DNA of 64,000 bases from the NCBI GenBank assembly GCA_965218095.1, contig OZ244587.1:1668720-1732719 (forward strand), written 5' to 3'. How positions within the stretch are numbered: the stretch's first letter is position 1; each line of letters starts with the position of its first letter. Below, one piece after another: positions 13,330 through 44,299 of the stretch. Made by a program: the position numbers and the translations under genes. The notes below the pieces were generated by a model. That model saw nothing but the letters and a program-made list of their open reading frames with translations. It was not told the DNA's origin and did not search any database. This DNA is from Candidatus Poribacteria bacterium (GTDB taxonomy: Bacteria > Poribacteria > WGA-4E > PCPOR2b).

Positions 13330-13415
13330 TGTTCAGGAATGGAGGGGATGAATAGAAGGTACGGTTAGAACATGGCTTGACAAAATGAACAAATCTTCCA
13401 AATCCGCTGCTCTAA

Positions 13416-13820: not shown

Positions 13821-13908
13821 AAATTCAACATCTTCTTCCTCAAGGTAGCCCCGTCGGTTTTGGGCTAATGAACGGCGTCACACCGAAGGAAATTAAAGGG
13901 AATCCTCT

Positions 13909-14288
13909 ATGACTACCAAACAAAGAAAAGAAGAATACACACTTCAGGAAATAATCAACCTTTGGGGCAATTCCTCTCTTTTTCAAACAGGCTCTAAAGC
14001 TCGCGACGACAGTCGGTTGGATTCCTGCCGACACGGCTATGCCTGTGATGATGAAAACGTCACAATTTTTATCATTATCAGAACACAATGGGAGAGGTTG
14101 GCTCAAGGCCGACGATCGGAAGTATGGTAATTGCGGATATTTTGCGTCATGACATCAAAACTGTGTATATCACGGGTTTTCCAAATTACGTGTCAGAAAA
14201 GCAACCTGAAGGTGTGAGCCTGCACGAGCATGAGACGAGGAAAGACTTCGATTTCCTACGACATTTGGCGGGGCGGTGTGGTGGATAA
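13909..14288 (+). pseudogene. frameshifted paralogue of the small ORF at 14276-14533
   Basis: Two overlapping ORFs (13909-14130 and 14088-14288). Together they reproduce the motif HYxNTMxxVGxxPxxGxxxIxDILxHDIKxxYITGFP of the downstream paralogue. Confidence 0.3.
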
Positions 14289-14533
14289 AAAGTTTTGTCG
14301 AGGCATTTCAAAATTCGGGCGGTAAGTTTCTTTGTACCGAACAACTCAGCAATGCGGATGCCCTTGGATCACTTATCATTAAGAAGCTTCACCCCGTGCG
14401 ATATACGACGGTCGATCATTATCACAACACGATGACAGCAGTCGGCACGGGTCCTGTGGCAGGAACTCTTGCCATTACCGATATTTTGAAACACGACATC
14501 AAATCTGCATATATCACAGGTTTTCCTTCATGA
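14276..14533 (+). CDS. small hypothetical protein (85 aa) of a locally duplicated family
   Basis: Shares HYHNTMTAVGTGPVAGTLAITDILKHDIKSAYITGFPS with the upstream frameshifted copy. No known domain recognised. Confidence 0.3.
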   Translation: MWWIKSFVEAFQNSGGKFLCTEQLSNADALGSLIIKKLHPVRYTTVDHYHNTMTAVGTGPVAGTLAITDILKHDIKSAYITGFPS

Positions 14534-14709
14534 TCGATTACCTGACACACCCTGAGTTTGTCAGGTACAACCCGGGGTTGCCACTGTCAGCACAAGGACG
14601 TCATTTGTGTAGATGTTAAAGAAATTGTGTGTTAAACTTACTCCTATTTATGGTGATTTGTTTAATTCTGTTAAAGCGAAGGAACACTCATGATTACAAG
14701 GGGAAATCG

Positions 14710-19530: not shown

Positions 19531-19557
19531 GTCAACCTCCTAGGTTCTGTTGACATT

Positions 19558-19994
19558 TCAAGGGAGCCATATAAGAGTGGAGACAAAGCTGAGAAATCCA
19601 AAATAACGGATAGCTAACTTCTCGAACCGAGAGAAGATGCGGCGATACCATTTTATCTTGTTAATGAAACATTCAACCCGATGTCTCTCTTTGTACAGAT
19701 GTTTGTCGTAATCTCTTTGATCCACACGATGACTTTTGGGCGGTATCACCGCAATCGCTCCATTCGCCTCAATAACCGCGATAAAATTGTCAGAGTCATA
19801 TCCCTTGTCTCCAATCACATACTCGCTTTTATATCCAAGTATCAACGCTTCTGCTTCTGCTATGTCGTTTCTTTGACCGGGCGTCAGATGTATTCTTAGT
19901 GGATTACCCAGGCCGTCAACGATGATGTGAATTTTTGTACTGAATCCCCCGCGAGAGCGACCTAACGCTTGGTTTTCAGTGCCACCCTTTTTTT
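19558..19994 (-). CDS. IS427-group transposase OrfB (DDE domain), reached by -1 frameshift from OrfA
   Basis: ...STKIHIIVDGLGNPLRIHLTPGQRNDI...VIGDKGYDSDNFIAVIEANGAIAVIPPKSHR... Confidence 0.75.
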
Positions 19995-29262: not shown

Positions 29263-30252
29263 TTATTGCCCTTCCTTCAGATCTTCGTCTAGGTCGACTT
29301 CCTCTACACTAAAGCGGAGATGCACTTTGTTGACTAAATCGATGATGTCCTGCCACTGCTTTTGGGTCTTATCAGAAATCCCCTCTTTTTCGAGGGATTC
29401 TGCAAGCTCATGGAGCGCATCATGGACCTGTTTCTGCAGATAGGCGTATTCTTCCTCGTTATTCGGATTCTTTGGTGGCACAAACACGGGGATTAACTCG
29501 GCGTACTCCCCAAGCTGTTTCGCCGCCTTAACCACGTCGGCTTTACTTTCTCCTGTTTTGAAGTATTCCCGAATGACGATGTAAGACTCGTGCATGGTGT
29601 GCATCAACGCTTTGAGGTCTTCAAACTCATCGGCGTCATCCCCGTGTCCATGACTGTGGTCGTGTGCATCTGTTTCCGCCTTTGGCTGCTCCTTCTTTTT
29701 GAGAAAGAGTGTGTAACTCATCGCGAGCATCTTTTTCGGCATGAGCGCAACCGCTTGAGAGGCTTCCTCTTGACCGGCGACCGGTTCGACATTTTCCCCG
29801 ACTTTGAATTTATCTTCAATCCTCTTGCCGATAAACTGCTTGAGGAATTTGTCGTCGCCAATGTCGGAGGCTTCTTTATGTTTATAGACCTCGACTTTGA
29901 CGACCTTTCCATTCATGTCGAGTCCAACGCCGCCATCAATGACGCCATGTGGTCCTTTGACATCCACAAACAAGATAAGACCTAGCGGTTTCTTATTGTC
30001 GTTCACTGCGACGTAAAAGGTTGGCTTGAGGTCTTCAGAACGCAGCTTGGTTCCGATCTCTCTTTCGATCGATGCGACTTGATCTGCTGTTAAGACAGCT
30101 TTTTTTTCAACAAATTCCTTTGCCTTCGGAAAAATGGAAGCTAATTTTTTGCCGGGCCAGGTTTTCTCTTGCGCCCATGTGACGGTTACTGGTAAGACAG
30201 TTAGTATGCTTAAAAGAGCGATTAGGCAAAGTGCAACTGCTTTGGATTTCAT
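29263..30252 (-). CDS. secreted FMN-binding-domain protein
   Basis: Signal peptide. TFYVAVNDNKKPLGLILFVDVKGPHGVIDGGVGLDMNGKVVKVEVYKHKE matches an FMN_bind domain. His-rich linker. An AAGGAAGG RBS. Confidence 0.5.
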   Translation of the reverse strand: MKSKAVALCLIALLSILTVLPVTVTWAQEKTWPGKKLASIFPKAKEFVEKKAVLTADQVASIEREIGTKLRSEDLKPTFYVAVNDNKKPLGLILFVDVKGPHGVIDGGVGLDMNGKVVKVEVYKHKEASDIGDDKFLKQFIGKRIEDKFKVGENVEPVAGQEEASQAVALMPKKMLAMSYTLFLKKKEQPKAETDAHDHSHGHGDDADEFEDLKALMHTMHESYIVIREYFKTGESKADVVKAAKQLGEYAELIPVFVPPKNPNNEEEYAYLQKQVHDALHELAESLEKEGISDKTQKQWQDIIDLVNKVHLRFSVEEVDLDEDLKEGQ

Positions 30253-30302
30253 CGGTTTTTCCTTCCTTAAATGATTGAAAATTGATTTGCTCCCAACTAT
30301 TC

Positions 30303-31239
30303 TAACCCAAGTTGCGACCTATTCATCGAATATGTGAGTGAACTGAATATGTGAGTGAACTCAGAGCTGATTGATACTGCTAGCCAATACAAACAAGACC
30401 ACTTTCAATTCAAATCCGTGTTGCGTTACTGCATGGATTGAACGTGGAAGCAGTTTGTTAATCAAACTGCCAGCCGTCTCAACAGACTTACGATGGTAAT
30501 TAGCCAAGTAGGTCTCCCATGGTGGATACAGCCGCTTGGAATTCTTCTTGCGTACTGGCTTTAACGACTGATGTAACAATATCTTCTATCTCATAATTAT
30601 TGTATGCTTTGTCACCATAGCCCGGTGGCAAGTCGAAGTCAAACCACTGTAACCCTTCAACGTCCCCTGTACTGGCTGGGGTCACAAAAAATTCAACAGG
30701 GTGTCGACTCGCAGTCACTAGCAGATGAACTTTCAAGCCATAGAAATACCGACGTTTGGACGCTTGATAGCCTCGATATGCCTTATCGGTATAGATTTTT
30801 GACCGACGAATGCGGAACAAACAGCAATTGGTATGGTATCCAGTGCATAGATTTTCTGTTGATTAAGTTGCACATAGCTTCGTCCCAAGATTTTGAACAA
30901 TGTGGTGAACATCGGTTTAATTCGATGAAGTCGTCGGTTTAATCGACTTTTTGAAAGCATCTTGGGTATATAGCCATGAGTCTTTAGAAAGTCACAAGTG
31001 GTTTGCAAGTTTGCCCCGAAGAACAACGCAGCGACGATGCCGGTGGTCATCACTTCGGCATCAGACATCTGCGTTTGTGGGTGTGGTTTTGAGTTGAGTG
31101 CTTCTAAGAGCTTGTCACAGAGATAGAAAATGGTTACAATTTGGATGTCCATGGGTTTCTCCTTTGAGGTATTATGGTTTGGATTACCTCTACTTTAACG
31201 GAAAACCCATGGATTTTCAATTACTAGCAACTTGGGTTA
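30303..31239 (-). mobile_element. IS982-family insertion sequence, copy 1 (degenerate)
   Basis: 13-bp perfect terminal inverted repeat TAACCCAAGTTGC...GCAACTTGGGTTA. The transposase is split into three ORFs (30733-31152, 30500-30820 and 30361-30579), with motifs FYGLKVHLLV...TPASTGD...HGFELKVVLFVLASSINQL typical of IS982 transposases. Confidence 0.75.
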
Positions 31240-31297
31240 TTCTAGCAATTTCACCTTTATTTTTCAACCACATTCCCTAAACCTCATCATGAGCACT

Positions 31298-32623
31298 TTA
31301 TCCCAGATCGCGGCGAAGTTCCGCTTCCGATGCCAAGTCCGCGACCGTCCCCGGCGGATGCTTATACCAGCCGGGGTCGTCATAACTGGTGAGATTTTCG
31401 CGGATTTTGACGATGGTAAACATCCCGCCCATCGTAATGTAGTCAAACGGACCGTATGCCCCGACCATGGGAATGCTGTTTTTCGGCACAGCCATGTGCC
31501 CCGATTCGACGTGAATCCCATGTTCACCCATGCCGTGCTCGCCCATCGTCATATACGCAGGCAGAAGTTGGCGGATTTTCTGGTCAATGTTGCCCTTTTT
31601 GATGCCGACCACGTTTAAAAATTCGTGCCCCATCTGGTTCATGACATGATGCGTCATGTGGCAGTGCATCGCCCAATCCCCCGGATCGCTGGCAACGAAC
31701 TCAACATCGCGGGTTGTCCCCACCGGAACGAGAACTGTTGTTTCTGGCCATTGTCCTGAAGTCGGGATTCGCCCACCTTCTGTAGCGGTGATTTTGAAGT
31801 AGTGCCCGTGCAGGTGAATCGGGTGATGGTCCATCGCCGAAAGATTGCCGAAGCGAATCCGCACCCGGTCGCCCAGTTTGGCGACCAGCGGCTCGGTTCC
31901 GGGGTAACACTTCGCGTTCATGGTTAGGATATTGAAATCGTTCATCTCGTTAGGGTTTGGCGTGGACGTCCCCGGATCGATCCGCCACTCGCTTAACATG
32001 ATGGCAAAGTCCCGATCTACTTGGTAATGGGGGTCAGGTTTTCTGGGGTGGAAAACCATCATGCCGAGCATCCCCATCGCCATCTGGGTCATCTCGTCGT
32101 GGTGGGAATGGTACATATACGTGCCTGATTGTCGAATTGTCCACTCGTATTTGAAGGTCTCCCCCGGCTGGATAGCTCGCTGGGTCAACCCACCCACACC
32201 GTCCATCCCATTCGGTAGAAAGACGCCGTGCCAGTGAACAGCGGTTGGTGCCTTGAGCCGGTTGGTCACATAGATGCGGACGCGATCGCCTTCCACGGCT
32301 TCAATGGTCGGTCCGTGCACCTGCTCGTTGTAACCCCAGCACTTCGCTTTCAGACCAGGGGCAAATTCATGCCAGACTTCTTCAGCGATAAGGTGAAAGA
32401 CTTTTACCCCATCAACAATCTTCCACGGTAGCGGTGCACCGTTCGGTGTGACGACCGGCGTGTAGTCTTTATCAGGGATACCCGGGTCCATCGCCGGACG
32501 ATTTGAATTGCCTGCGTAGGATTTCTGCCATTGGGATTGGGCGGCTTCTACACCTCCCGAAGCCCCGAAAGCGAAAGCCCCGCCAACGAGAGCACTCGTT
32601 TTCAAAAGATCCCTTCGGTTCAT
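31298..32623 (-). CDS. copA: multicopper oxidase (CopA/CueO-like) with a Tat signal
   Basis: MNRRDLLKTSALVGGAFAFGA. Copper-binding HWHG and HCHMTHHVMNQM motifs. Confidence 0.85.
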   Translation of the reverse strand: MNRRDLLKTSALVGGAFAFGASGGVEAAQSQWQKSYAGNSNRPAMDPGIPDKDYTPVVTPNGAPLPWKIVDGVKVFHLIAEEVWHEFAPGLKAKCWGYNEQVHGPTIEAVEGDRVRIYVTNRLKAPTAVHWHGVFLPNGMDGVGGLTQRAIQPGETFKYEWTIRQSGTYMYHSHHDEMTQMAMGMLGMMVFHPRKPDPHYQVDRDFAIMLSEWRIDPGTSTPNPNEMNDFNILTMNAKCYPGTEPLVAKLGDRVRIRFGNLSAMDHHPIHLHGHYFKITATEGGRIPTSGQWPETTVLVPVGTTRDVEFVASDPGDWAMHCHMTHHVMNQMGHEFLNVVGIKKGNIDQKIRQLLPAYMTMGEHGMGEHGIHVESGHMAVPKNSIPMVGAYGPFDYITMGGMFTIVKIRENLTSYDDPGWYKHPPGTVADLASEAELRRDLG

Positions 32624-32624
32624 C

Positions 32625-34082
32625 TCAATGTCCTCCTTCCTGGTTTGTCAATGACAGTTCAGCCATGCGGTGAAGCCGGTAGGGTCGAAAAGTGAATCCC
32701 ACTAGCCGACCGTTGAGAATCTGTTCCAGTTCCGCTCGTGCGACATGATAATTGTAGAGCGACTGGATATATTCCCGACCGGCGTCAATCTCGCGCTGTT
32801 TTGCGAGTAACAGGCGTAACGCACCGACCTGCATTGCATTGTACTGTAGTTGGACCTGTTCGAGAATCTTCTCTTGGAGTGGAAGTATTTCATTCTGATA
32901 AGACAGTGCGGTCTGTCGAGCGGTCAATAGGCGACGTCGCGCGGCGCGAACCGCGGAGCGGATCTCAACCGCCAGTGCGTGGTATTCACCCTGCTGTCGG
33001 CGTAACTCTGCCGCTGCCGCCGCTCGCTGCCCCTGATTTCGATCGAAAAGTGGAATCTCAAACCCCAGTGCGGGTCCCGCTGCCCACGCTCCTGCTTCCT
33101 GCTCAATCTCCCCACCGATTTCCAAATTCGGCACGAGAGACATCGCTTTTGCCACGCCGAGTTGTTTCCCGATGGAAACGATGCCCCGCCGTGCAATGGC
33201 AAGGTTGATGCTGTTTTCAATCGCCCGCTTTTCGAGGTTGTCGAGTCCTATTGCTTCAGCAGGAATGTCGCGGAGTCGAGATTCGACTCTCCACGCCGTA
33301 TCCTCTCCCCACAACCCCATCAAAGCGTTGAGTTGCTCACGGTTTTCAGCAAGCGTGACCTCCGCAGCAGCGAGTTCTAACTTCGATCGCTCATAGGACG
33401 TTTTTTGAAGCAGTAGGTCTAGCTCCGGGACATTCCCCGCTTCGACAAGCTGTTGGGCGAACTCGTAACCCGCCTGCGTTGCCAAGACGATCTGCTGGAA
33501 CATTTCCAACATCTGCTCATCAGCTTGAACGCGGTAGAATGCCATTCGCGTTTCCCCTGCCAAATCCACCACGGCAGCCGTCATGCGCAGTTTCGCTGCC
33601 TCGAACTGGGATTTCGCTACCGATTTGCGCATCGGCGCGTACAGCATGGAGAGGAAATCCATTTCGACTTCAAAGGTGTACGTGCTGTTGTCACGGAGTT
33701 TGTCCACCATCTCCTCGTCGGAATCAGAGGGGCCGAAGGTCGTTGCGCCGTGAAAAACCGGATTCGAGAACAAGCCAGCGTCAACAATGGCAGCGTGGGC
33801 AATCCCCAATTCCTCATAGGTCGCTTGCAGACGATGGTTATTCAACAGCGCAATTTGAACGGCAGCATCGACGGTCAGCGGCTTATCCAACAATTCTCTA
33901 ATTGCCTGAGCCGCTTCATCATCCGCAGCCGTGTCCGCATTCCAGTGAATACGGTAGCCAATACGGTCATCCACCTGCCGCTGGACTTCGCTGAAACCCG
34001 TTTTTTTCGACACACCGGCGCAACCGATCAGGACGAATGACGCCGCGAAGAACAACACGGCGCATCTCATTTTTTCGTTCAT
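32625..34082 (-). CDS. TolC/CusC-like outer-membrane efflux protein
   Basis: 485 aa. Lipoprotein-like N-terminus LIGCAG. Two OEP repeat halves. GAGGAG RBS. Confidence 0.75.
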   Translation of the reverse strand: MNEKMRCAVLFFAASFVLIGCAGVSKKTGFSEVQRQVDDRIGYRIHWNADTAADDEAAQAIRELLDKPLTVDAAVQIALLNNHRLQATYEELGIAHAAIVDAGLFSNPVFHGATTFGPSDSDEEMVDKLRDNSTYTFEVEMDFLSMLYAPMRKSVAKSQFEAAKLRMTAAVVDLAGETRMAFYRVQADEQMLEMFQQIVLATQAGYEFAQQLVEAGNVPELDLLLQKTSYERSKLELAAAEVTLAENREQLNALMGLWGEDTAWRVESRLRDIPAEAIGLDNLEKRAIENSINLAIARRGIVSIGKQLGVAKAMSLVPNLEIGGEIEQEAGAWAAGPALGFEIPLFDRNQGQRAAAAAELRRQQGEYHALAVEIRSAVRAARRRLLTARQTALSYQNEILPLQEKILEQVQLQYNAMQVGALRLLLAKQREIDAGREYIQSLYNYHVARAELEQILNGRLVGFTFRPYRLHRMAELSLTNQEGGH

Positions 34083-34103
34083 CTAGTAAACTCCTCGTCT
34101 GTT

Positions 34104-34985
34104 TTAATAGTTATGTTCGTGTGCATCGTGTCCATGAGGGTCTTCCGATTCATCCTCGTGATGCTCCATCTCCTCGTGCTCCTGTGTTTTGTGCATGTCA
34201 TGATGGTGATGCTCGTGTCCACCTTTTTCCTGCTTATGCTCGTGAGACTTCATGTCCTCGTGTCCAGACATATCGGTGCTTGAGACGGGCATCTGCATTT
34301 TCGCGCTGTGGCACTTGAGCATCGCGCTTCCGAAATACGGGTTGCGGACGTCCTCGCCGACTTGCAGCCAGATACCCCCTTGCGGGACATCGGACGCCAT
34401 ACCGCACACGTAGCTGTAGACCGGACTCTCGTAACTTGCTGGCACACTGACAGCGGCAACGAAGTGATTGAGGACATCGCTCAACGAACCGTAGGCGACA
34501 CGCGCAGCTTTGATGTCCGAGAGATCGCCGACTTCATGTCCATGGTCATGGATGGCCTCGGTATGGGCTTCGTAAGAATGCCACAACTCGGCGGGCACTT
34601 CGTGTTCAAGCGTATGGAGGGCTTCGAGCATCGCGTGCGCCTGCGCGTTGACATCTTCCATCGTGTCGGAAGCGAGTTGGTCGCCGATGACGAAATAGGC
34701 GTCTAGCATCATCGCCAGCGCTTCTTCGCCTTCCTCCGACAACGACGCAGCCCTGTGATGCGCTGCGACGCCTTCTTCAGTCATCGCCATCTCTTCCTTT
34801 AGCGTGTCTGGTGGAATTCCAAAGACAGTCTGCGGCGCACCAGGATGCGCCGGATGGTCCTGTGGAGTAGCAACTTCGACTGTTTTGCCGCCGCATCCAA
34901 CGACAAGCGACGATACAATGATGAGTCCAAGGATAAGTGTAGATACGGTTCGTTTATGGAAGTTGAAAACCCTGGATAACATGAG
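34104..34985 (-). CDS. His-rich periplasmic/lipo-protein (DUF3347-like heavy-metal-binding)
   Basis: LVVGCGG lipobox. C-terminal run GGHEHHHHDMHKTQEHEEMEHHEDESEDPHGHDAHEH. Confidence 0.5.
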   Translation of the reverse strand, partial: LMLSRVFNFHKRTVSTLILGLIIVSSLVVGCGGKTVEVATPQDHPAHPGAPQTVFGIPPDTLKEEMAMTEEGVAAHHRAASLSEEGEEALAMMLDAYFVIGDQLASDTMEDVNAQAHAMLEALHTLEHEVPAELWHSYEAHTEAIHDHGHEVGDLSDIKAARVAYGSLSDVLNHFVAAVSVPASYESPVYSYVCGMASDVPQGGIWLQVGEDVRNPYFGSAMLKCHSAKMQMPVSSTDMSGHEDMKSHEHKQEKGGHEHHHHDMHKTQEHEEMEHHEDESEDPHGHDAHEHNY

Positions 34986-35113
34986 CATAGCCTCCGTTTT
35001 GGGTAAAAAATGATCAAAGATAGGTTTTGGGCGTTTCAACATAGACGCGCAGAAACGCCGATCGATCAATAGATTTTGAGTCTTTCAGATTTGGGAAAGC
35101 GTGGAGGAGAAAA

Positions 35114-35581
35114 TCAGGTGAAAGGAAACGGAGGGGCGCGGGGGGAAATCTGCTGAGTAGGAGAATCTTTGTAGGGTTTGTAGGCGAATTGAAGATAGGA
35201 AGTGAAAGAAACGGAGTCGGAAGAAATCTTAGGAATTGCAGGGATTAGCGCAACAAATGAGAACTTGCCTTTTTGTATTTGTGAGACGAGCTGAGGTTCG
35301 CTGGCTCCGAGCAATTCCCACCGGTTTAAGCAACAATTGTCGTCTCCATCGTTTTGGCTTTCGTGGGGGCGGGCTGGTTGATTTTCAGCATGACAGCAAG
35401 TTGGATTGTCTGTTTCAGCGGTGGTTTGTGACAAGGTCAGAGACTGCCGATAGATCGAGGCTTTATCGGATTCGGCGTCTCCACAGTCTGCTTCTCGGAG
35501 TGCTGGACATAGCACCGGGCAAAGAAAATAAACTGAAGATATCGAGAGTAAAACCAGCGCGTAAACGTCCTTGAATTTCAT
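35114..35581 (-). CDS. secreted Cys-rich hypothetical protein in the copper islet
   Basis: Signal peptide. CGDAE, CCHAE and CCLNRW motifs. GGGAGG RBS. Confidence 0.35.
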   Translation of the reverse strand: MKFKDVYALVLLSISSVYFLCPVLCPALREADCGDAESDKASIYRQSLTLSQTTAETDNPTCCHAENQPARPHESQNDGDDNCCLNRWELLGASEPQLVSQIQKGKFSFVALIPAIPKISSDSVSFTSYLQFAYKPYKDSPTQQISPRAPPFPFT

Positions 35582-35876
35582 CAAATTACCGCCTCCCATG
35601 CAATAATACTTCTACGCAATAATAATAATTATACCCGGCTTTGCGTATGGAAGTCAAATTTTTCGCCAGGGGCATTTAATTCTCGGCTTTGACCTCTCCC
35701 CCGGCCCCTCCCCCCGATTTCTCGGGCAGAGGGGAGCAAAGGCCTCCCGAAAACACCGTCTGGCGCGAGATTTGTCTTCCCTTCTTTGCAGCGGAGAGGG
35801 GGTGAGGAGATGAGGTTCGGAGAATTAAACGACCCTAAATTTTCGCTCAGAAAAAACTTCCAAACTCTTGCAGAGA

Positions 35877-36173
35877 CTAACCCATAACCGCCTCTTCCTG
35901 TTCAACCGCAATCGAGAACCACCTATACAGCGCCGGAATCACTAACAACGTCAAAATGGTTGATGTGACCAAACCACCGATCACCACCGTTGCCAAAGGA
36001 CGTTGTACCTCGCTGCCAGTACCATGGGACAAGACAATGGGGACGAGCCTAAGCCCAGCCGCGGATGCTGTTATCAGCACGGGACGTAGCCTCAAGCAGG
36101 CGCTGCGAATACATGCGTCGGTCATGGGAATTCCCTCCTGTAGGAGCTGGTTGAGGCAGGTCACCAAAACCAT
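35877..36173 (-). pseudogene. C-terminal remnant of an RND heavy-metal efflux pump (CusA/CzcA family)
   Basis: Only the final 98 aa are present (...RPLATVVIGGLVTSTILTLLVIPALYRWF), against about 1040 aa for a complete pump. Confidence 0.65.
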
Positions 36174-36285
36174 GCCATTGGCGAGAGCAATCCCGAAGAG
36201 CGCAATGAAGCCTATCGATGCCGGGACAGACAGGTTTTGCCAACTCTTTGAGAGACCCGGAAGCTAAGATAAATCGTTTGATGAA

Positions 36286-36736
36286 GTGAAGATCTCCTTC
36301 GCTCAACGCAGACAGCCACTTCGGGATTTGCGCTTCGCTTACAACCGGGGAGATTGTTTCGGAGGAGTTCGATTTCACAGTAACACCCAACGCCCTTGCA
36401 AACGCAGTTCTGCCAGTAAGGCTTGATGGGGTTGGCACGCCGAAGCAGACCCTTCTGTTGCAGAACTATCTCAACCCGTTCAACCCTGAAACGTGGATTC
36501 CGTATCACCTTTCGGAAGCTGCTCCTGTAACCCTATCAATTTACGACACGACCGGACAACGGATACGGACGCTTTCGCTTGGATTCCAGTTAGCAGGCTT
36601 CTATCAAAGCCGTCCACGCGCTGCCTATTGGGATGGGTGCAACGACTTGGGTGAACGGGTTTCAAGCGGGGTCTATTTTTACCAATTGTCCACCCCATCT
36701 TTCTATCGGATGAAGCGGATGGTTATTGTGAAGTAG
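36286..36736 (+). pseudogene. orphan T9SS C-terminal sorting domain with linker, lacking a start codon and a protein body
   Basis: ...FDFTVTPNALANAVLPVRLDGVGTPKQTLLLQNYLNPFNPETWIPYHL...YFYQLSTPSFYRMKRMVIVK. The open frame begins right after a TGA at about 36283. Confidence 0.65.
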
Positions 36737-36784
36737 CCTTGGGTTGGTTGTTGCAACAATCGTCAATTGAAAGGCGGAATGACA

Positions 36785-37198
36785 CTACCAAGTACGAGTG
36801 AAACTTAACCTTCCGGTCAGCCCGGTTTGCTCTTCCGCTTTTTTGGTGTCATACCCAACAAGTATGCCGAGAGTGTTATTTTCGCCGTAGCCGATGTTGA
36901 TTCGCGGACCGACTACGAGACTGAAACTGTCACCCTTAACAGCGGGGATGGAAACACCAAGGTCAAACTCTCCGATGGTATCGTTGATGTAAATATTAGA
37001 ATCGAGCGAGATGCCGCCAACGGAATGGGTTGCCCCGATTAGGAAATGCGTTCCTAAGGTATCGGTATCGACGCGGAACCAGCCGGGAATGCGGGTTTTT
37101 TCGGCTGCCGCTTCACTTTCATCGCTCTCTGCCCAGACTGAACTACTCCCAACGGTCACGATACAAACGATTATCAAAACATGGGTGAATCTATACAT
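36785..37198 (-). CDS. small secreted hypothetical protein (beta-rich)
   Basis: 137 aa with a signal peptide. No recognised domain. Confidence 0.4.
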   Translation of the reverse strand: MYRFTHVLIIVCIVTVGSSSVWAESDESEAAAEKTRIPGWFRVDTDTLGTHFLIGATHSVGGISLDSNIYINDTIGEFDLGVSIPAVKGDSFSLVVGPRINIGYGENNTLGILVGYDTKKAEEQTGLTGRLSFTRTW

Positions 37199-37323
37199 TT
37201 TGCTTTATATCCTTTCTTGTAATAGACTAGGATTATGCCTTTAGAACCTCAATACCGTAGGCGGAGTATTCTTGCCCCGCTCCTCAATTATACCCTTGGC
37301 AGCCGATTTTTGAAATTAAAAAA

Positions 37324-37353
37324 TTTGTCAAAGTCAATCCGCTTGTGCTACAA
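37324..37353 (+). promoter_or_regulatory. sigma70-like promoter TTGTCA-18nt-TACAAT (copy 1 of a duplicated 35-bp promoter cassette)
   Basis: aaaaatttgtcaaagtcaatccgcttgtgctacaat. Identical over 35 bp to 43198-43232. Confidence 0.5.
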
Positions 37354-37374
37354 TAACCCAAATTGCTACCTAAA

Positions 37375-38486
37375 CTGAGGGGTGTGCATAGTAGTTCATT
37401 GGAAAACAGCCGCCATATGAGAGATATTGCGAGCAGGTAACTTCCATATGGCATTGGCAATCATAGCCACTTGCACTGATAACACCCCGATAGCTAAACA
37501 ACAGCGTACATTGAAAAACCCCTTGACCGGTAACTGCTTCTGTTGAGGAGTGGTGCCTATCACTTTAGCAATCAAGTCAAACAACGGTTCAACCGAACTG
37601 CGACGTTTGCTTAAACAGAGACGCTGCTTGGGTTGGTTGATAAATCGATGATACGCCTTGGCAAACCGTCCCTTTGTCCATCTAAGTGCCGGGGTAATCA
37701 AAGCGACTTGTGCCTTCGCCCAACGACGGATACGGTCTGCTTGGGTATAGGCATCATCGGCAGTGAGTGTCTGCGGTGAAAGTTGTGTCAGAATCTCAGA
37801 CGCTTTAGCATCTATCGCCCAACTTTCGGAGACCGACGCACGGTGCACAGTTATCAGTGTTGGGAACGCACCTTGTGTGCAGATAATGTGAAGTCCGTAG
37901 CCATAGACCCAGCCATGATAACCACTCTTGCTCCACGTGGCATCGGTGTCGAGGTTGCGTAGATGTTTAGGTGCTTTTCCTGCTTTGCGGTCAGTTTGAT
38001 GCCAGACGGGTCCTCGTGCCTTAAATAAACTTTTGTCGGCTACCAGATGAGCCAAGTTGAATTGTTGGGACAAGTCAGTGGCATACTGACCGATAAACAA
38101 TACAAATGCCTCTATCACTTCATATAATGCCTTATAGCGACGTGCAATCGTGGTTCGATGAGGGGGCTGTTGCCACCCCAGCATTTGTAACACTTCTGGG
38201 TGATTGATTAGCCACCGCCATTGCGTTTTGAAGCCATAGATGCCGTGAAACTGCATCAACATGAAGAAAATGATAAACGAGGTGGTTGAATATGTCAATG
38301 GTTTTGCGTGTGTGACACCTGGTTTGTCAATACGGTGTTGCATAAACTGCTCAAAGAGTTGCATAATAAGAGTGACATAATCAGCCAACATTGGTCTTTG
38401 TACCATATTGGGGCTCCTTTTGCTATGATAACAATAGGAAACCCTTTTGGCTTGATTATGTCAACTATATTTATGCACACCCCTCA
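37375..38486 (-). mobile_element. IS4/IS5-superfamily (DDE_Tnp_1) insertion sequence, 1112 bp
   Basis: 15-bp terminal inverted repeat TGAGGGGTGTGCATA / TATGCACACCCCTCA. A 7-bp direct repeat CCTAAAC at 37368-74 and 38487-93. One 336-aa transposase ORF at 37396-38406. Confidence 0.75.
37396..38406 (-). CDS. DDE transposase (IS4/IS5 superfamily)
   Basis: 336 aa occupying the body of the IS element. Confidence 0.7.
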   Translation of the reverse strand: MVQRPMLADYVTLIMQLFEQFMQHRIDKPGVTHAKPLTYSTTSFIIFFMLMQFHGIYGFKTQWRWLINHPEVLQMLGWQQPPHRTTIARRYKALYEVIEAFVLFIGQYATDLSQQFNLAHLVADKSLFKARGPVWHQTDRKAGKAPKHLRNLDTDATWSKSGYHGWVYGYGLHIICTQGAFPTLITVHRASVSESWAIDAKASEILTQLSPQTLTADDAYTQADRIRRWAKAQVALITPALRWTKGRFAKAYHRFINQPKQRLCLSKRRSSVEPLFDLIAKVIGTTPQQKQLPVKGFFNVRCCLAIGVLSVQVAMIANAIWKLPARNISHMAAVFQ

Positions 38487-38921
38487 CCTAAACTGGAAAA
38501 AACATTATTTGTGCAGAACGTTCAGTGTAGGTTAGGTTGAACGGTTAAAAGCGAATCCCTATCAAGGACAAATAGAGGTGCTGCCTTTCAACAACACGGT
38601 CTTATAGTGAAACCCAACCTCTCCATCCAACCGACGCGCTGATTATCAAGTGTTGGGTTTCACTCTATTTGTGAGATTTCAAGCAGAATCGAATCCCGCA
38701 ATCCAAGTGTAATGTTTGGTATTTTTCATTGGTTCCGTTCAACCCAACCTACGTGCTATAGACATATCGCTCCATATGACCCGGCACGCTGCGCCGCCCA
38801 TTGCTGGGTCATTGCGAAAGGTTGAGCACCTCGACTTTAACGAAAAACCGATGAATTTTCAATAGGCAGCAACTTAGATTATCATATACCCATTTGGGTA
38901 TCAAATTGAACGGAGAACGTT

Positions 38922-41900
38922 TTGAATAAGCGGATTACCTCAATACCTATTGTGCTAGCACTCTATACAATCCTAATATGTATTCCATCTTCGGTATATG
39001 CCAAAAAGGGGGTAAGACAGCAGATTCAACTGAAAGCAGGCGCGGCGTTGCAGCGGATCAAATCCGATTCAGAAACCCCTGTCCGTGCACGATGGCATCA
39101 GAACCGGGGGACAGTCCGCAACCTTTACAATTTGACACTGCCTGCCCCGATAGGAACGCTGGAAACATCAGTGCGTCAATGCCTTACCGACTATTGTGAC
39201 CTTTTTGCGATGACTGATCCAAACATCGAGTTGCGTCTCACGGATATCCAAAACAGCTTAACGGGCAGACATGTTCGATTCCATCAATACTACAACGGTA
39301 TCGAAGTTTACGGTGCAGTGACCTCGGTCCACACCAACCGCTCTGGGCAGATACGAGTCATCCACAACAACTACTTCCCACAGATCAACATCAGTACAGC
39401 GGCATCGCTCTCCCCGGAACAAGCAATCAGTATCGCCATTGCCGAGTCCGGTGCATTCGATTTGCGCAAGCCGCCGCGTGTCAACTTGGTAATTTTCCCG
39501 GATCGTAATACGGGACAGATAGGCGACTATGCTAATGCGTATCGCCTCGCTCACCGCACAATCGTGCACTCCCGTCAACCACTCGCAAGTTGGGAGTATA
39601 TCATTGACACCAACACCGGCGAGCTGTTGCACCGACGGAACCTGCTCAGGTTTGCTGACGGACAAGGGCGCGTCTTTAACCCGAATCCTGTTGTCGCCCT
39701 TAAAGATTTCACGCTCATGGACCAAGATGATTCTCCTGACGCGATACCAGAAGCAGCGTATACGGATGTGATGCTACCTGAGTTGGACGGGAGTGGTTTT
39801 CTTGATGGGCCTTACGCGAGTACGAGATTGACCGAAAATCGTGCCAACGAGCCGACGCTGGGGTTCAACTATCTCCGAGATGATCCCCGATTTGAGGAGG
39901 TGATGGTCTATTATCACGTTGATGCCGTTGGGCGTTATTTGAAAGGACTCGGCTTCGATTTCGTGGACAATTGGCAGATTCCTGCGAATGTGCATTTCGG
40001 TATGACGAGGGCTGGTTTCTATAACGATAGTGAGGGATCGATTAATTTCGGAGATGCCGGTGTTGATGTTGCCGAAGATGCTGAAGTGATTATCCATGAA
40101 TATGGTCACGCGATCCTTGATCGACAGGTCCCTAACATTAACAAGGGCGAAGGTGGCGCGATACACGAAGGGTTTAGTGATTTTCTCGCAGCCAGTTTTT
40201 TCAGTGCCGTGAGCGATGGTTTTAGTGACTCGATCGTTTTTGAATGGGCTGGTTCAGGTGACCCTGAGATTTACACTCGTCCCGTAACTGGTAACAAGCG
40301 TTATCCCGAAGACATTGTGGGTGAGCCACACACCGATGGAGAGATTTGGTCTGCGGCACTATGGGAGATTTTTGAGGCGATTGGACGCGATGCGTCGATC
40401 CGCTTGATTGTCGAGAGCCATTTCTTCCTCTCACCCGACACGGAACTTGTCGATGGGGCATCAGCGATTTTTATGGCGGATCAGGAACTGAATGGTGGAG
40501 TAAATTTCGACCTAATTTTGGGAATTATGGAGAACCGTGGATTCTTTACGCTGCCCAAATTGGCATCGGATGCCTTTGAGGAGAACGATACAGCGGAGAC
40601 CGCAGCCGCGATTGAGCTCCCGTTTGTCAACGGAGAACTGTCCGTCCACACAGCGGACAATGATGATTACTATAGATTCCGTTTGGATGAGACAATGCAG
40701 GTTGGGTTGGGAATTGATTTTCAACCCATTTACGGGGAGTTGATGCTAACATTGATGGGACCTAATGGTATCGAGCTTGTTACCTTCGAGACGAAGGATG
40801 TTACATCGCTTGAATTAGTGCCGGGCGATTATGTCGTTGCAGTTTCGGGCATCAACGGTGCGACTAACGATTATAAACTAGCGCTTATCGTTGACAACCA
40901 CGGCGATACGCCTGACACAGCGACATCTGTGGCGATCGGCGACACGATAGAAAGTTTCATCGACTTCAACGGAGATACGGATTTCTTCGCGATTGAAGGT
41001 GAGAAGGGGCAGCGCATTGAAATCACTATTACGACAAAGAACTCCGACCTCGACTCTCTGCTCGTTGTCTATGGACCAGATGGTGAGCTCTTTGCTAAAA
41101 GTGATGATGTCTTGCCGACCATCGGTCCGGAGCCGATTCCCGAACTAAATCCGCGTGGGATTGATTCCCGCGTGAGTGAAAAACTACCAGCCAATGGAAC
41201 GTACCTGCTCGCTGTCAGCAACATTGCACTTCCCAATCTGAATGCCCCCTTTGGCGGTCTAAACTACTCTTACACACTGACGATCAGTGGGAAGACCGAT
41301 GACCATGCAGCGTGCGGTAGTGGCGAGGAAACGCCATTGACCTTCGATGCACCTATAACAGGTATCATTACCCTTAGCACCCTTAGCGGTGATCCTACAT
41401 CACCGGATCCTCAAGACTCGGAACCCGATCTTCATGACTCGGACGGTTTCCGCTTTGAAGCGTCAGAGGGCACTGTCATTGCCCTACACGTTGAGGTAGA
41501 AACGCCTGCACGCGAGGTAATATTTATGGTGACCCTCCTCAGTCTTTTGGATGCATCTGGAGAAACGTTGGTATCTACTCGTGGCGCTCCTAATGGCTTA
41601 GAGGTGCGGATTGATGGATTTCTCATCCCTGCCGATGGCGAGTATTGTGTTGATGTTGCCGGTTTCATAGGAGGTGCGGTTGGTTCCACTTATACCTATA
41701 CGCTGACGTTATCTGAGGGCGAACTGCCCGAAGATGATCACGAAGATCTGAAAGGGAATCCAACCCCCTTAACGGTGGGTGTTCCTGTCGAGGGAGCGAT
41801 CAGTTTTGTCGGGGATGCCGATGCGTTTCAGTTTACTGCTACAGCGGGACAAATCATTACGTTAGCGGTGGACGGGCAACCCGCCACTCCGTTCTCTCGT

Positions 41901-42962
41901 TTAGTTTTGACCCTGTATAATAGCGATTTACAGCGTTTAGCCGAGGTTCCGCTCTTTATAGAAGGTATTGATTCGATGCTAGAAGGATTTGAAATTCCTG
42001 TGGACGGAATTCACTATGCCGAGATTAGAGATATGTTCGGAGGAAGTGAAGCGAATTTTTCCTACACACTGACCCTGACAATCGAAGAGGGAGATGTTGA
42101 GCGTAAATTTCCCCCTTATGATGTCAACCAAGATGGCAAGGTGGACATTTTTGATCTCGTGCTTGTCGGTCAACATTTCGGCGAAAAATTCATTAACGCC
42201 ACGCCAACTGCAGATTTTGGACAGTTCCGTTCGGTATCGCCCGAAGGGGAGTTGCGGCTCCTGATGACCCCGAGTGTGACGGATACACGACAATTGACCG
42301 TCTCAATCCACACCACAGCGATTGCCGATCTTTACGGCTACCATTTTTCAATCCAGTACGATCCGGCGATATTAGAGTTCCTTACTGCATCACCAAGCCC
42401 GGTTTTAGCCGCTGCGCTGCCCCAAAGTTACTGGCATATCTCCCAGCAAGGGACACAACTGAAGTTCACACAGACACGTCAAGCAACGCTGAAAGGTGTG
42501 ACAGCAGAGGGTTCACTGGCTATGCTTGTTTTTCATGTCAAAAAGACGGTGCCCCCGTCGTCGCAGCCCCCCATCCGGCTCGTTGACCTGCAACTGGCGG
42601 ATTCGCTGACAAGAGCGATTCCGGTGCACGTGGTCGGTGAGCGAGTGTCAATGACAGAGCTATTCCCTGAGAAACCGATGTTGCTGCAAAACCACCCGAA
42701 CCCGTTTAACCCGGAAACATGGATTCCGTATCAACTCTCTACCGATTCAGAGGTGGTTATCTCAATTTACGATACAAACGGTGAGCGTGTCCGTCAATTT
42801 GACCTCGGCTATCAGCACGTTGGGACATACATTACTCGCGGTAGGGCGGCCTACTGGGATGGAGAAGACATGTATGGTGAGCAGGTTGCGAGCGGCTTAT
42901 ATTTTTATCAGATCCGGGCGGGTGCGTTTTCTGCGACCCGCAAAATGGTTATCGTCAAATAG
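38922..42962 (+). CDS. secreted mosaic metalloprotease: FTP/PepSY-like propeptide, M36/M4-type gluzincin domain, 4 PPC (pre-peptidase C-terminal) domains, dockerin-like module, T9SS C-terminal sorting domain
   Basis: 1346 aa. TTG start with a GGAGA RBS. HEYGHAILD plus EGFSDF at about 40097-40200. Four DxDxY/FxF PPC units (ADNDDYYRF, GDTDFFAI, HDSDGFRF, GDADAFQF). YDVNQDGKVDIFDLVLVGQHFG at about 42115. C-terminus LLQNHPNPFNPETWIPYQL...YFYQIRAGAFSATRKMVIVK. Confidence 0.85.
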   Translation: MNKRITSIPIVLALYTILICIPSSVYAKKGVRQQIQLKAGAALQRIKSDSETPVRARWHQNRGTVRNLYNLTLPAPIGTLETSVRQCLTDYCDLFAMTDPNIELRLTDIQNSLTGRHVRFHQYYNGIEVYGAVTSVHTNRSGQIRVIHNNYFPQINISTAASLSPEQAISIAIAESGAFDLRKPPRVNLVIFPDRNTGQIGDYANAYRLAHRTIVHSRQPLASWEYIIDTNTGELLHRRNLLRFADGQGRVFNPNPVVALKDFTLMDQDDSPDAIPEAAYTDVMLPELDGSGFLDGPYASTRLTENRANEPTLGFNYLRDDPRFEEVMVYYHVDAVGRYLKGLGFDFVDNWQIPANVHFGMTRAGFYNDSEGSINFGDAGVDVAEDAEVIIHEYGHAILDRQVPNINKGEGGAIHEGFSDFLAASFFSAVSDGFSDSIVFEWAGSGDPEIYTRPVTGNKRYPEDIVGEPHTDGEIWSAALWEIFEAIGRDASIRLIVESHFFLSPDTELVDGASAIFMADQELNGGVNFDLILGIMENRGFFTLPKLASDAFEENDTAETAAAIELPFVNGELSVHTADNDDYYRFRLDETMQVGLGIDFQPIYGELMLTLMGPNGIELVTFETKDVTSLELVPGDYVVAVSGINGATNDYKLALIVDNHGDTPDTATSVAIGDTIESFIDFNGDTDFFAIEGEKGQRIEITITTKNSDLDSLLVVYGPDGELFAKSDDVLPTIGPEPIPELNPRGIDSRVSEKLPANGTYLLAVSNIALPNLNAPFGGLNYSYTLTISGKTDDHAACGSGEETPLTFDAPITGIITLSTLSGDPTSPDPQDSEPDLHDSDGFRFEASEGTVIALHVEVETPAREVIFMVTLLSLLDASGETLVSTRGAPNGLEVRIDGFLIPADGEYCVDVAGFIGGAVGSTYTYTLTLSEGELPEDDHEDLKGNPTPLTVGVPVEGAISFVGDADAFQFTATAGQIITLAVDGQPATPFSRLVLTLYNSDLQRLAEVPLFIEGIDSMLEGFEIPVDGIHYAEIRDMFGGSEANFSYTLTLTIEEGDVERKFPPYDVNQDGKVDIFDLVLVGQHFGEKFINATPTADFGQFRSVSPEGELRLLMTPSVTDTRQLTVSIHTTAIADLYGYHFSIQYDPAILEFLTASPSPVLAAALPQSYWHISQQGTQLKFTQTRQATLKGVTAEGSLAMLVFHVKKTVPPSSQPPIRLVDLQLADSLTRAIPVHVVGERVSMTELFPEKPMLLQNHPNPFNPETWIPYQLSTDSEVVISIYDTNGERVRQFDLGYQHVGTYITRGRAAYWDGEDMYGEQVASGLYFYQIRAGAFSATRKMVIVK

Positions 42963-43202
42963 TTAACTCAGGTTGCCACCTATCGCCCCGCTAGGGCTTT
43001 AGGTGACAACTTGAGTGTTTTTACTATAAATCACTTTACTCGCAGCTACTTCAGGATAACCATAAGAGAGTGACCCCGAAACCTTTTGAGTTGAAAAAGG
43101 ATGAAAACCGCGCCTTGCTAATCTTATTATAAAAAAGTGCTCCCGATCTTTGCAAGAAAAAAGCAAAGGAAAACTAAACGCCCCTAAATTGCGACAAAAA
43201 AT

Positions 43203-43232
43203 TTGTCAAAGTCAATCCGCTTGTGCTATAAT
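43203..43232 (+). promoter_or_regulatory. sigma70-like promoter TTGTCA-18nt-TATAAT (copy 2 of the duplicated cassette)
   Basis: aaaaatttgtcaaagtcaatccgcttgtgctataat, upstream of the 43281-46653 gene trio. Confidence 0.5.
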
Positions 43233-43280
43233 ATCATCTCTAATTTTCAAGTATCTCACGTTTGAAAGAGGTAAAGGTTC

Positions 43281-43583
43281 TTGCAGAACAATCGAACCCA
43301 CATCAATCCAACCGGCTGGGTAATTGCAATTGGGATTTTTTATTCTCTGATGGCAATAAGCCTTGTCGGGCTCACATATGAACACGACCACAATATCCTC
43401 GGTTCGACTGATTGTTCTGCTTGCTTCTTCAGTGCCAACCACCTCGGTATTGAGCTCCATGCTGTTGACTTCACCAATCTCGATACCTGCATCTCAATTC
43501 ACTCCCCTTTCGACCTTACTTTCATCTTCACGACACCTGTCAACAATATCCAAAGTCGTGCCCCACCAGCGTTCTCCATTTAA
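43281..43583 (+). CDS. small hypothetical membrane protein
   Basis: 100 aa with one TM helix and Cys/His residues (EHDHN, CSAC). First gene after the promoter. Confidence 0.3.
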   Translation: MQNNRTHINPTGWVIAIGIFYSLMAISLVGLTYEHDHNILGSTDCSACFFSANHLGIELHAVDFTNLDTCISIHSPFDLTFIFTTPVNNIQSRAPPAFSI

Positions 43584-43723
43584 TCTCCTAATCTAACCCA
43601 TATCTCTGCTTTTTTGACCCAATCAATTTCTATCTTTTCCCTGGCTGATCTGTATCTGACTTTGGCGGTAGTCTGCCTAAGTCGTGATGCCGGGAAAAAC
43701 AATTTATCTATATTTTGGAGGAC

Positions 43724-44299
43724 ATGATGTTTACCTGTTTTTTTAGATTCACTCTGTTACTACTCGCATTTGCTGTGCTGTTCGCCGCTTGTAGCGAAGA
43801 TGATAATCCCATTGTTGACCATGACGACGAACCATTTCATGCCGATGCCGACGGTTTTATCCTCAAGGTTGACGGGAACGAGATCTACCGCCAATTTCAG
43901 GGGACGCATACGGGAGGTATCACCCTCAAAGTCGGGGAGGAACTGGATGTTCTCGCCGTGTTCCTTAACCAGCATGAAGAGGAATTTTTCCCTGAAGCCC
44001 CGGAAGAGGGCGAAGATCACGACCACGACGATCATGGTGAGGAAGAGGTGTTTGCCTTAGCTCTCAGCGGATTTGATTCATCAACCATTGAAGTACACCT
44101 TTACGAAAGTGAGGAGGACGACCATGAAGATGATCACGCTGAAGAAGGCGAAGACCACGACGATGAGCTCGCCGAAAAATTTACCTTTGAGGTGAAAGGG
44201 CTTAAAGCCGGAAAAACAGAGTTCAAACTCCAGCTATTGCACGGCGACCATCCTGATTTCACGGCGGCGTTCTCGACTCCCGTAACGGTTACACCGTAG
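43724..44299 (+). CDS. His/Asp/Glu-rich lipoprotein (putative periplasmic metal-binding protein)
   Basis: LFAAC lipobox. GEDHDHDDHGEEE and EDDHEDDHAEEGEDHDDE runs. Confidence 0.5.
   Translation: MMFTCFFRFTLLLLAFAVLFAACSEDDNPIVDHDDEPFHADADGFILKVDGNEIYRQFQGTHTGGITLKVGEELDVLAVFLNQHEEEFFPEAPEEGEDHDHDDHGEEEVFALALSGFDSSTIEVHLYESEEDDHEDDHAEEGEDHDDELAEKFTFEVKGLKAGKTEFKLQLLHGDHPDFTAAFSTPVTVTP

Follow-up and report, generated by a model that had tools for sequence, protein, structure and literature searches.

In this study, we examined a window of 64,000 nt from a Candidatus Poribacteria genome (contig OZ244587.1; all coordinates below are window positions), and within it the region 31298-36736, where a multicopper oxidase (MCO) gene and its companions adjoin the remains of a CusA-type pump gene and of a gene for a secreted protein. 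An earlier note on this DNA had read the region as a copper-resistance islet that was acquired and then eroded. Our best explanation, which we regard as likely when taken as a whole, is that the region joins two unrelated things: a conserved Poribacterial operon in its ancestral position and the scar of a rearrangement. The operon runs on the minus strand in the order open reading frame (ORF) X, DUF3347-like lipoprotein, OEP-family outer-membrane lipoprotein and MCO. Judged by its sequence, it is a conserved, self-contained unit that is apparently copper-related, and the analogy with known leaders suggests that it is probably switched on by X, a ribosome-stalling, CutF-like leader.

For comparison within the species, we used two contigs assembled from long reads, 5.3 and 6.27 Mb in length and with 13x and 43x coverage (ENA ERZ25072670 ctg256831_13x_l and ERZ25067264 ctg836689_43x_l), which were found through an exact match to the MCO protein. 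Eight Poribacterial MCO loci (L087-L091 and L094-L096), representing at least five further lineages, were compared for gene order, and two relatives, L005 and L006, carry syntenic orthologues of the neighbourhood of the truncated secreted-protein gene.

A conserved four-gene operon

The MCO gene (31298-32623, minus strand) is intact, as the earlier note had stated, and encodes a two-domain protein of 441 aa with the Pfam domains Cu-oxidase_3 and Cu-oxidase_2. Its signal for the twin-arginine translocation (Tat) pathway scores 20.1 against the TIGR01409 cutoff of 16.7, and 4/4 copper ligand motifs are in place (HWH130, HSH172, HPIHLH267 and HCH320..H326..M331), together with a Met/His-rich insert. 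The nearest solved structures are the two-domain MCOs 2zwn and 3g5w of the PDB, with which it shares the core of two cupredoxin domains and the full set of type 1, 2 and 3 copper ligands; in contrast to these, it has an additional C-terminal region of ~100 aa that bears the Met/His-rich stretch. Among NCBIfam models, the copper-resistance CopA subfamily matches it best, though below the cutoff. Dozens of Poribacteria protein clusters are 80-87% identical to it, and other phyla appear only from ~76% downwards. The named relatives of several genes in the region carry the label "Candidatus Poribacteria bacterium".

Directly upstream lies an intact gene (32625-34082, minus strand) for an OEP-family outer-membrane lipoprotein of 485 aa (PF02321, 116.9 bits; lipobox LIGC). 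The earlier note had called it CusC-like, and the family assignment stands; it is not an orphan CusC, however, since it is the constant partner of the MCO, its gene being directly upstream of the MCO gene in 8/8 Poribacterial loci, and since it scores far under the family cutoffs for NodT (26 vs 210) and TolC (50 vs 225). The OEP is thus the partner of the MCO module and not the leftover of a lost pump. The gene before it (34104-34982, minus strand; likely start ATG at 34982) encodes the DUF3347-like lipoprotein with a His-rich tail and the lipobox VVGC, intact as previously described. Against the DUF3347 profile (PF11827) it reaches 23.0 bits, just under the cutoff of 25.5, and its L090 orthologue reaches 25.6; the DUF3347-like core is conserved (VCGM..IWLQ..VRNPYFGSAML.CH), and public assemblies call a 292-aa product for this gene. 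A literature search for DUF3347 together with copper returned no papers, and one for moxB/moxA as a precedent for an OEP-MCO pair gave no usable paper.

The arrangement of these genes is conserved as well. Three loci (L090, L091 and L096) show genes for a 367-aa and a 195-aa protein followed by X, DUF3347-like, OEP, MCO, FMN-bind and Rieske genes, L094 shows X, DUF3347-like, OEP and MCO in this order, and L087-89 have DUF3347-like, OEP and MCO without X. Overall, the module occurs in at least five further lineages, of which four keep X and most keep the FMN-bind and Rieske flanks. In the window, FMN-bind-like, Rieske and cytochrome b genes likewise follow the MCO gene downstream, in the order found in relatives. 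The G+C content of the module (0.48-0.55) and its G+C at third codon positions (GC3, 0.47-0.65) fall inside the spread shown by the other genes of the window or at its upper end. Of the acquired and eroded islet, then, the erosion is visible in the region; the acquisition falls, since the module is syntenic in Poribacteria and ordinary in GC and GC3.

Nor does cusA form part of the module, as had been supposed: within 9-10 kb of the eight Poribacterial MCO loci, tblastn with CusB included found neither cusA nor cusB. Homology to L090 and L091 by blastn covers X and stops at 35608-35620, with weaker similarity maybe reaching ~35690, the place at which, in relatives, the 195-aa gene upstream has its stop. 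Because homology to the relatives ends at the 5' region of X itself, the cusA remnant lies outside the conserved unit. Profile scans of metagenome contigs with the X and DUF3347-like alignments confirmed no relative. In L087-L089, genes for a PDZ protein, a histidine kinase, a sigma-54 response regulator and a cupredoxin stand directly after the MCO gene (~13060-16590 of these loci), and the leader may there have been swapped for a two-component regulator.

ORF X, a candidate leader

X (35114-35581, minus strand), the first gene of the operon, encodes 155 aa and was overlooked in the earlier note. An exhaustive search of 1.84 billion representatives yielded a family of 15 clusters, and X has no Pfam or NCBIfam match. 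At a mean column identity of ~34%, the family alignment has few near-invariant elements. Conserved across the family are the charged start MKFKD with ~22 hydrophobic residues behind it, the near-invariant C21-P-x-x-C25 (C21, P22 and C25 each at least 90% conserved) and two pairs of cysteines, CC62-63 and CC83-84. The most conserved element of all is the C-terminal RAPP, which always stands 4 residues before the stop; conservation is at least 90% at R148, A149 and P150 and complete at P151. Among six-frame ORFs of at least 60 codons, R[AG]PP occurs only twice in the 64 kb, both times exactly 4 residues before the stop, and both ORFs are small and head a metal-related operon. Exact-protein look-ups of X (in a 161-aa form) and of the 98-aa ORF in the cusA remnant gave no match because public gene calls use other starts.

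The 5' region of the operon (35600-35690, minus strand) is conserved with L090 and L091 and holds a sigma-70-like promoter at 35657-35628, with 11/12 matches in a promoter scan, as well as a repeated motif. The latter, ATTGCGTAG..N8..ATTGCATGG at 35600-35626 on the minus strand (repeat ATTGCRTAG/ATTGCATGG), stands just before the ribosome-binding site of X, is kept in L090 and L091, and may be an operator for some regulator. The interval 35600-35876 had been described as G/C-rich, low-complexity DNA. This description does not hold: its G+C content is 0.45-0.53, its left part is the operon 5' region and its right part a hairpin of a C-run and a G-run in the flank of the cusA remnant.

A predicted helix between X and the next ribosome-binding site

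The Shine-Dalgarno (SD) region of the DUF3347-like gene, AACGGAGG (34991-34998, minus strand), is predicted to form the 3' arm of a masking helix whose other arm lies within the coding sequence of X. This anti-SD, CCUCCGUU (35127-35134, minus strand), is made up of the codons Pro150-Pro151-Phe152, the RAPP codons spanning 35129-35140. In five lineages, these Pro-Pro-Phe codons (CCU CCG UUU) provide an exact 8-nt complement of AACGGAGG, ~130 nt downstream. When the window, L090, L091, L094 and L096 were folded in contexts of ~160 and ~365 nt, the 8-bp helix had a predicted pairing probability of 0.94-1.0 in both, and an RNAalifold consensus recovered it with eight invariant base pairs, plus an internal hairpin with two compensatory pairs. 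The third positions of both Pro codons and of the Phe codon are identical in the five lineages, and those of the Arg and Ala codons vary. The AAC-GGAGG context is conserved in all five lineages with X, whereas in L087-89, which are without X, the anti-SD and this context are absent and the SD context differs. Another candidate, a window-specific anti-SD (CUCCUCC) just past the stop of X that appeared in a fold of the spacer only, was discarded; it is not conserved and was replaced once the end of X was folded in.

A second candidate leader

A further leader candidate, Y (43281-43583, plus strand), encodes 100 aa with a transmembrane segment, the motif CSAC, and SRAPPAFSI before the stop. It has no Pfam family and no DUF2946 match, and is conserved in L006 and, in two copies, in L005. 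Downstream of Y are genes for a His/Asp-rich lipoprotein of 194 aa (43715-44299) and a TonB-dependent receptor (44443-46653). With CSAC and RAPP upstream of such a receptor, Y mirrors the CruR-BfrG arrangement, and is closer to CruR than X is.

The scar of a probable rearrangement

Beyond the 5' region of the operon lies cusA' (35877-36239, minus strand; homology 35880-36239), a pseudogene stub consisting of the last 120 codons and the stop of a CusA/CzcA-family resistance-nodulation-division (RND) gene. The earlier note had recognised it as a C-terminal CusA-type RND piece, correctly, and had given it 98 codons, a count from the first ATG that should be replaced by 120 homologous codons. These correspond to residues 920-1040 of the 1041-aa CusA, so that 11.5% of the pump gene is left, and to positions 935-1020 of 1021 in ACR_tran. 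TIGR00914 (CusA/CzcA) fits best, with 128.9 bits over positions 929-1037 of 1051, the next model reaching 91.2; CusA-type and CzcA-type are indistinguishable in the fragment because the metal-specificity regions (the Met cluster and the acidic motif of transmembrane helix 4) are deleted. A stop at 36264-36266 closes the frame upstream, and there is no full-length protein of 12 helices and ~1040 aa. At 5/74 columns that are at least 90% conserved, cusA' deviates from its 120 closest relatives, including G72R and G54S in columns that are 99% conserved, and in strain L002 it carries an indel of 15 nt. Within the stub, a perfect AGGAGG stands 7 nt before an in-frame ATG at 36125 (minus strand), because of which public assemblies call ACR_tran ORFs of 82 and 87 aa.

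The closest relatives of cusA', up to 83% identical over the fragment (74% for the Poribacteria metagenome-assembled genome (MAG) L009), belong to ordinary operons of OEP, membrane fusion protein and RND genes, and X-DUF3347-OEP-MCO follows downstream in 0/80 of the closest cusA loci from a scan of genome contigs that did not include this species. The two closest matches on long contigs are not further remnants but ordinary czcCBA operons, frameshifted in error-prone assemblies. The 64-kb window contains no other cusA and no cusB by tblastn. Compared with CusCBA and CzcCBA systems, cusA' shares the fit to TIGR00914, and the OEP is a lipobox protein of the Pfam family that also contains CusC and CzcC; in contrast to them, the window has no membrane fusion protein, and the OEP in relatives partners the MCO without an RND gene. 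The 3' flank of cusA' (35691-35876, minus strand; ~190 nt) includes a single imperfect hairpin (35693-35812, z = -2.0), in which a C-run (35693-35720) pairs with a G-run (35793-35812). This flank has no homologue in the compared loci or elsewhere in the window, and the hairpin motifs are unique to this species among the sequences compared. A search of 30000-39000 against Rfam gave nothing credible.

On the other side, the homology to cusA stops at 36239-36241, and a junction filler of ~50 nt without similarity to ends of insertion sequences (IS) follows (36240-36289). Then comes sort' (36290-36736, plus strand), the 3' 148 codons of a decayed gene for a secreted repeat protein with a type A sorting domain of the type IX secretion system (T9SS), likewise a pseudogene stub. 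It passes both domain cutoffs (TIGR04183, 27.5 vs 23; FlgD_ig, 35.4 vs 27). The earlier note had noticed this start-less fragment; it is indeed present and 5'-truncated, but its frame opens at 36290, after the TGA at 36287-36289, and not at 36286. There is no start codon ahead of the domain and no signal peptide. Homology to L005 and L006 begins at ~36290-36340, and the syntenic orthologues there (L005 10001-10567 and L006 814-1419) form the terminal parts of longer genes, which continue for at least 270 aa upstream. The same neighbours then follow: a 227-aa protein, a His/Asp-rich protein of 194-199 aa and a TonB-dependent receptor. With other T9SS type A proteins of Poribacteria (TIGR04183/FlgD_ig-like), sort' shares the C-terminal domain with the LLQNYPNPFNPETWIPY signature, which is also found in the neighbouring 1346-aa M36 peptidase; unlike the intact members, it is without a start codon, signal peptide and N-terminal repeat region, and near-invariant residues are changed.

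Variation within the species agrees with decay. The 447 nt of sort' contain 8 single-nucleotide polymorphisms (SNPs), whereas the four operon genes have 11 in 4284 nt, which makes a 7x density (p = 1.8e-4). Of the 8, 7 are non-synonymous, among them changes at invariant columns (P61L, G89R; the Pro of NYPNPF is hit). The orthologues in the two relatives are also broken, in different ways: L005 (9541-10567) has an IS982 upstream, an internal deletion and a frameshift, and L006 (2-1419) has a frameshift; one of the two is a 310x circular assembly. The secreted repeat gene thus appears to have decayed more than once in this group. Next to sort', p137 (36785-37198, minus strand) is an internally deleted version of the 227-aa protein, in which residues 117-182 are missing by tblastn against L005 and L006 (~90 residues lost); strain L001 has an additional 1-nt deletion at 36982 that shifts its frame.

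A stand-alone family of small proteins, which was raised as another explanation of the sorting fragment, is contradicted by the lack of a start codon and signal peptide and by orthologues that are the ends of longer genes. Many matches of 130-260 aa had made such a family a candidate, which was dropped. The homology search seemingly lists proteins up to ~1.75x the query length, as we infer from the hit lists of cusA' and sort', so that many short hits to both are expected; the matches of sort' are without signal peptides, 1/120 has an N-terminal hydrophobic stretch, and the internal position at which they begin in a single conserved domain varies among them.

The junction between the stubs, which meet head to head across the filler, is identical in the two other contigs apart from SNPs, and these are 99.3-99.6% identical to the window across the region. 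Because two independent long-read contigs share the junction, misassembly is excluded. Both stubs are pseudogenes fixed in the species. The scar measures ~1.1 kb, and ~35690-36290 is without a counterpart in relatives. Probably, one species-specific rearrangement made both stubs, either a deletion between divergent genes or an inversion with breakpoints in two same-strand genes. It would have removed the genes upstream of X in relatives and spared the 5' region of the operon. The rest of the window contains neither the missing 5' part of the secreted-protein gene nor the two genes (367 aa and 195 aa) that stand ahead of X in relatives, which excludes an inversion within it. No similarity to IS ends was found at either breakpoint.

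Mobile elements and repeats

A decayed IS982-family element, copy A (30304-31238, minus strand), is a simple insertion between the MCO and FMN-bind-like genes, which are direct neighbours in relatives and without an IS982 copy there. It has terminal inverted repeats AACCCAAGTTGC at 30304 and 31238, flanked by a 5-bp target duplication (ATTCT). Its transposase is split and frameshifted, with fragments of 37.8 and 107.3 bits against the NF033520 cutoff of 130 (184 for an intact homologue in L005), and the three strains differ in it by indels of 17, 8, 22, 1 and 12 nt. The IS982-like copy that the earlier note placed at 30303 therefore exists, with these corrected ends, but does not mark an islet border, since it is a simple insertion with its own duplication. 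A second copy (61792-62702), 99% identical and inverted, is missing one of its terminal repeats. In the window, the IS982-type repeat AACCCAARTTGC of such ends was counted 7 times against 0.8 expected, at sites including 30304, 31238, 37355, 60959 and 62701; at 37355 it stands solo at the edge of a 5.8-kb segment, and at 60959 it is followed by a 300-nt repeat of 19533-19832.

This 5.8-kb segment (37355-43196) is bracketed by a 38-nt direct repeat (37318-37355 and 43196-43233) of promoter-like sequence (TTGTCA-18-TACAAT), comprises an IS together with the 1346-aa M36 peptidase, and has no counterpart in L005 or L006. The IS is a strain-specific 1.1-kb element of the DDE_Tnp_1 type (37378-38485, minus strand) with AGGGGTGTGCATA inverted repeats and a target duplication of ~10 bp, and is absent from both other assemblies. 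At the same spot, L005 carries a different 6.3-kb cassette (MerC, ABC transporter, DUF3299) between direct repeats of ~600 nt. The site just upstream of Y may hence be an insertion hot spot. Elsewhere in the window, seven tandem copies of a 66-nt unit (5181-5791) lie inside a 1210-aa ORF (4274-7906) that ends in the same sorting domain as sort'.

Discussion

Known copper leaders provide the context for X. CutF of Rhodobacter capsulatus has a signal peptide, CxxxC and a proline-rich C-terminus, and a stall-like motif together with an SD-masking stem controls the translation of cutO (PMC9973294). In CruR of Bordetella pertussis, regulation needs RAPP and CXXC (PMC9426467). More generally, proteomes avoid RAPP, whereas small exported proteins encoded upstream of copper genes are enriched in it near their C-termini (PMC12992588). 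Genes of the CutF-like kind often head cusCBA operons and have OEP genes as their most frequent neighbours (literature). With the cutFOG system (PMC9973294), X shares its place as a small leader upstream of an operon for a Tat-exported MCO, an N-terminal export signal (in X putatively the hydrophobic segment), the motif CxxxC and a C-terminus rich in proline; an mRNA helix masks the downstream SD in that system, as is predicted for X, and the CutF system needs translation of the leader in cis. In contrast to CutF, X is a 155-aa protein without a DUF2946 match and with two extra CC pairs, the DUF3347-like and OEP genes stand between it and the MCO gene, and there is no CutG. The masking differs as well, in that CutF uses a local intergenic stem-loop, whereas in X the arrest motif itself would supply the anti-SD through its Pro-Pro-Phe codons, at a distance of ~130 nt from the SD. 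With CruR (Bp2923; PMC9426467) and upstream ORFs ending in RAPP or RGPP (PMC12992588), X has in common the RAPP near the stop, a cysteine motif and a place at the head of a metal-homeostasis operon. In CruR, however, the signal peptide is dispensable and copper relieves the arrest, leading to Rho-dependent termination and thus repression, while the logic expected for X is induction by unmasking of the SD.

Taken together, the predicted sequence of events would be as follows. X would be exported or inserted into the membrane during its synthesis, with its cysteine motifs sensing periplasmic copper, and the invariant C-terminal RAPP would stall the ribosome. The stalled ribosome would then hold the Pro-Pro-Phe codons, themselves the anti-SD strand, leaving the downstream ribosome-binding site free, so that the copper-handling proteins would be made, following the logic of CutF and cutO.

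Several observations weigh against our explanation. Any Pro-Pro pair written CCU CCN resembles an anti-SD, and part of the complementarity therefore comes free with the peptide motif; the helix has to span ~130 nt, and its eight core pairs, being invariant, show no covariation. Not one of 14 X-family members matches DUF2946 (PF11162), even at E values up to 5, which makes the likeness to CutF architectural only. The CxxxC of X is at the end of the hydrophobic segment and not clearly in a mature periplasmic part, and one lineage (L087-89) manages without X. The analysis shows the motifs, their conservation and the predicted helix, and from these we infer arrest, copper sensing and the way in which the operon would respond. 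The word copper itself follows from family resemblance, and some sources name homologues of the MCO manganese oxidase. As for the pump, an intact cusAB may exist outside the window and use this OEP.

Other explanations have to be judged against the same evidence. It is unlikely, in our estimate, though worth serious attention, that X binds copper as an ordinary cysteine-rich protein, exported or anchored in the membrane, whose RAPP is just a proline-rich tail and whose pairing with the SD is a by-product of its Pro-Pro codons. Such a protein would agree with the missing DUF2946 match, the anti-SD-like nature of CCU CCN and the lineage that functions without X; moreover, CutF itself acted as no strong arrest sequence in a LepB fusion (literature). 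It would leave aside that a tetrapeptide so strongly avoided in proteomes, and enriched where small exported proteins precede copper genes, is the best conserved element of a family with 34% mean identity, at a constant 4 residues from the stop. It would equally leave aside the three invariant synonymous positions and the AAC next to GGAGG in all five lineages, absent where X is absent. We consider it improbable that the module oxidises manganese or iron in the manner of MoxA instead of detoxifying copper. JGI names several of the homologues manganese oxidase, MCOs in MAGs are widely labelled moxA, and Rieske, cytochrome b and FMN-bind-like genes are the neighbours. Copper is nevertheless indicated by the MCO with its Met/His-rich insert, by the DUF3347-like lipoprotein with its His-rich tail and by the RAPP leader with its cysteine motifs, as well as by the CopA subfamily match, albeit below its cutoff.

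The reading of the region as a horizontally acquired, Cus-type islet, flanked by IS982 and since eroded, in which the OEP would be an orphan CusC in need of a CusAB elsewhere, strikes us as quite improbable. It has in its favour that cusA' is directly upstream of the operon in the same orientation, that an IS copy is at the far end, that CutF-like leaders are known from cusCBA operons, and that a Deltaproteobacterial locus (L082) has an OEP-MCO pair (43% and 69% identical) near cusA. The module is, however, in a syntenic position in other Poribacteria without cusAB and ordinary in composition; the IS has its own target duplication and is absent from relatives, the other border is without IS-end similarity, none of the 80 closest cusA loci has the module downstream, and the homology of relatives ends at the X 5' region. 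That the stubs are functional, cusA' giving a two-helix membrane peptide of 82-98 aa and sort' a sorting-domain protein of 92-148 aa, appears highly improbable. The strong AGGAGG before ATG 36125 with the public ORF calls, and the many short ORFs of the sorting-domain type on long contigs, would fit; yet short hits are expected from the search and hydrophobic N-termini are nearly absent among them, the non-synonymous changes of sort' strike invariant residues, as G72R and G54S do in cusA', and no promoter-like site lies upstream of cusA'. Finally, two 5'-truncated genes head to head can look like a chimeric join, but an assembly chimera that hides an intact cusA is barely conceivable when contigs of such length and separate coverage agree at the junction in every base other than SNPs.

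The preferred explanation, of a conserved operon beside a scar, has consequences of unequal weight. The stubs are routine genome decay and mainly an annotation matter: the public "ACR_tran" ORFs of 82-87 aa and short "T9SS" ORFs should be flagged as pseudogenes, and the OEP should not be annotated as an orphaned CusC. Copper-responsive arrest peptides, on the other hand, have been characterised only since 2022-2025, in Proteobacteria and Streptomyces, and here two candidate leaders outside DUF2946, X and Y, occur in an uncultivated lineage of probable sponge symbionts. By analogy with this recently described kind of leader, the distinctive feature of X is probably that its arrest codons double as the anti-SD which, if true, would be a compact natural design and would extend the reach of this regulatory mode. 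We regard as evenly balanced the fuller proposal that the X family, small, outside DUF2946 and so far found only in Poribacteria-like genomes, would consist of copper-sensing RAPP arrest leaders whose arrest codons form the anti-SD, with the CruR-like leader Y 8 kb away, and that this lineage would rely on nascent-chain sensing for its metal homeostasis.

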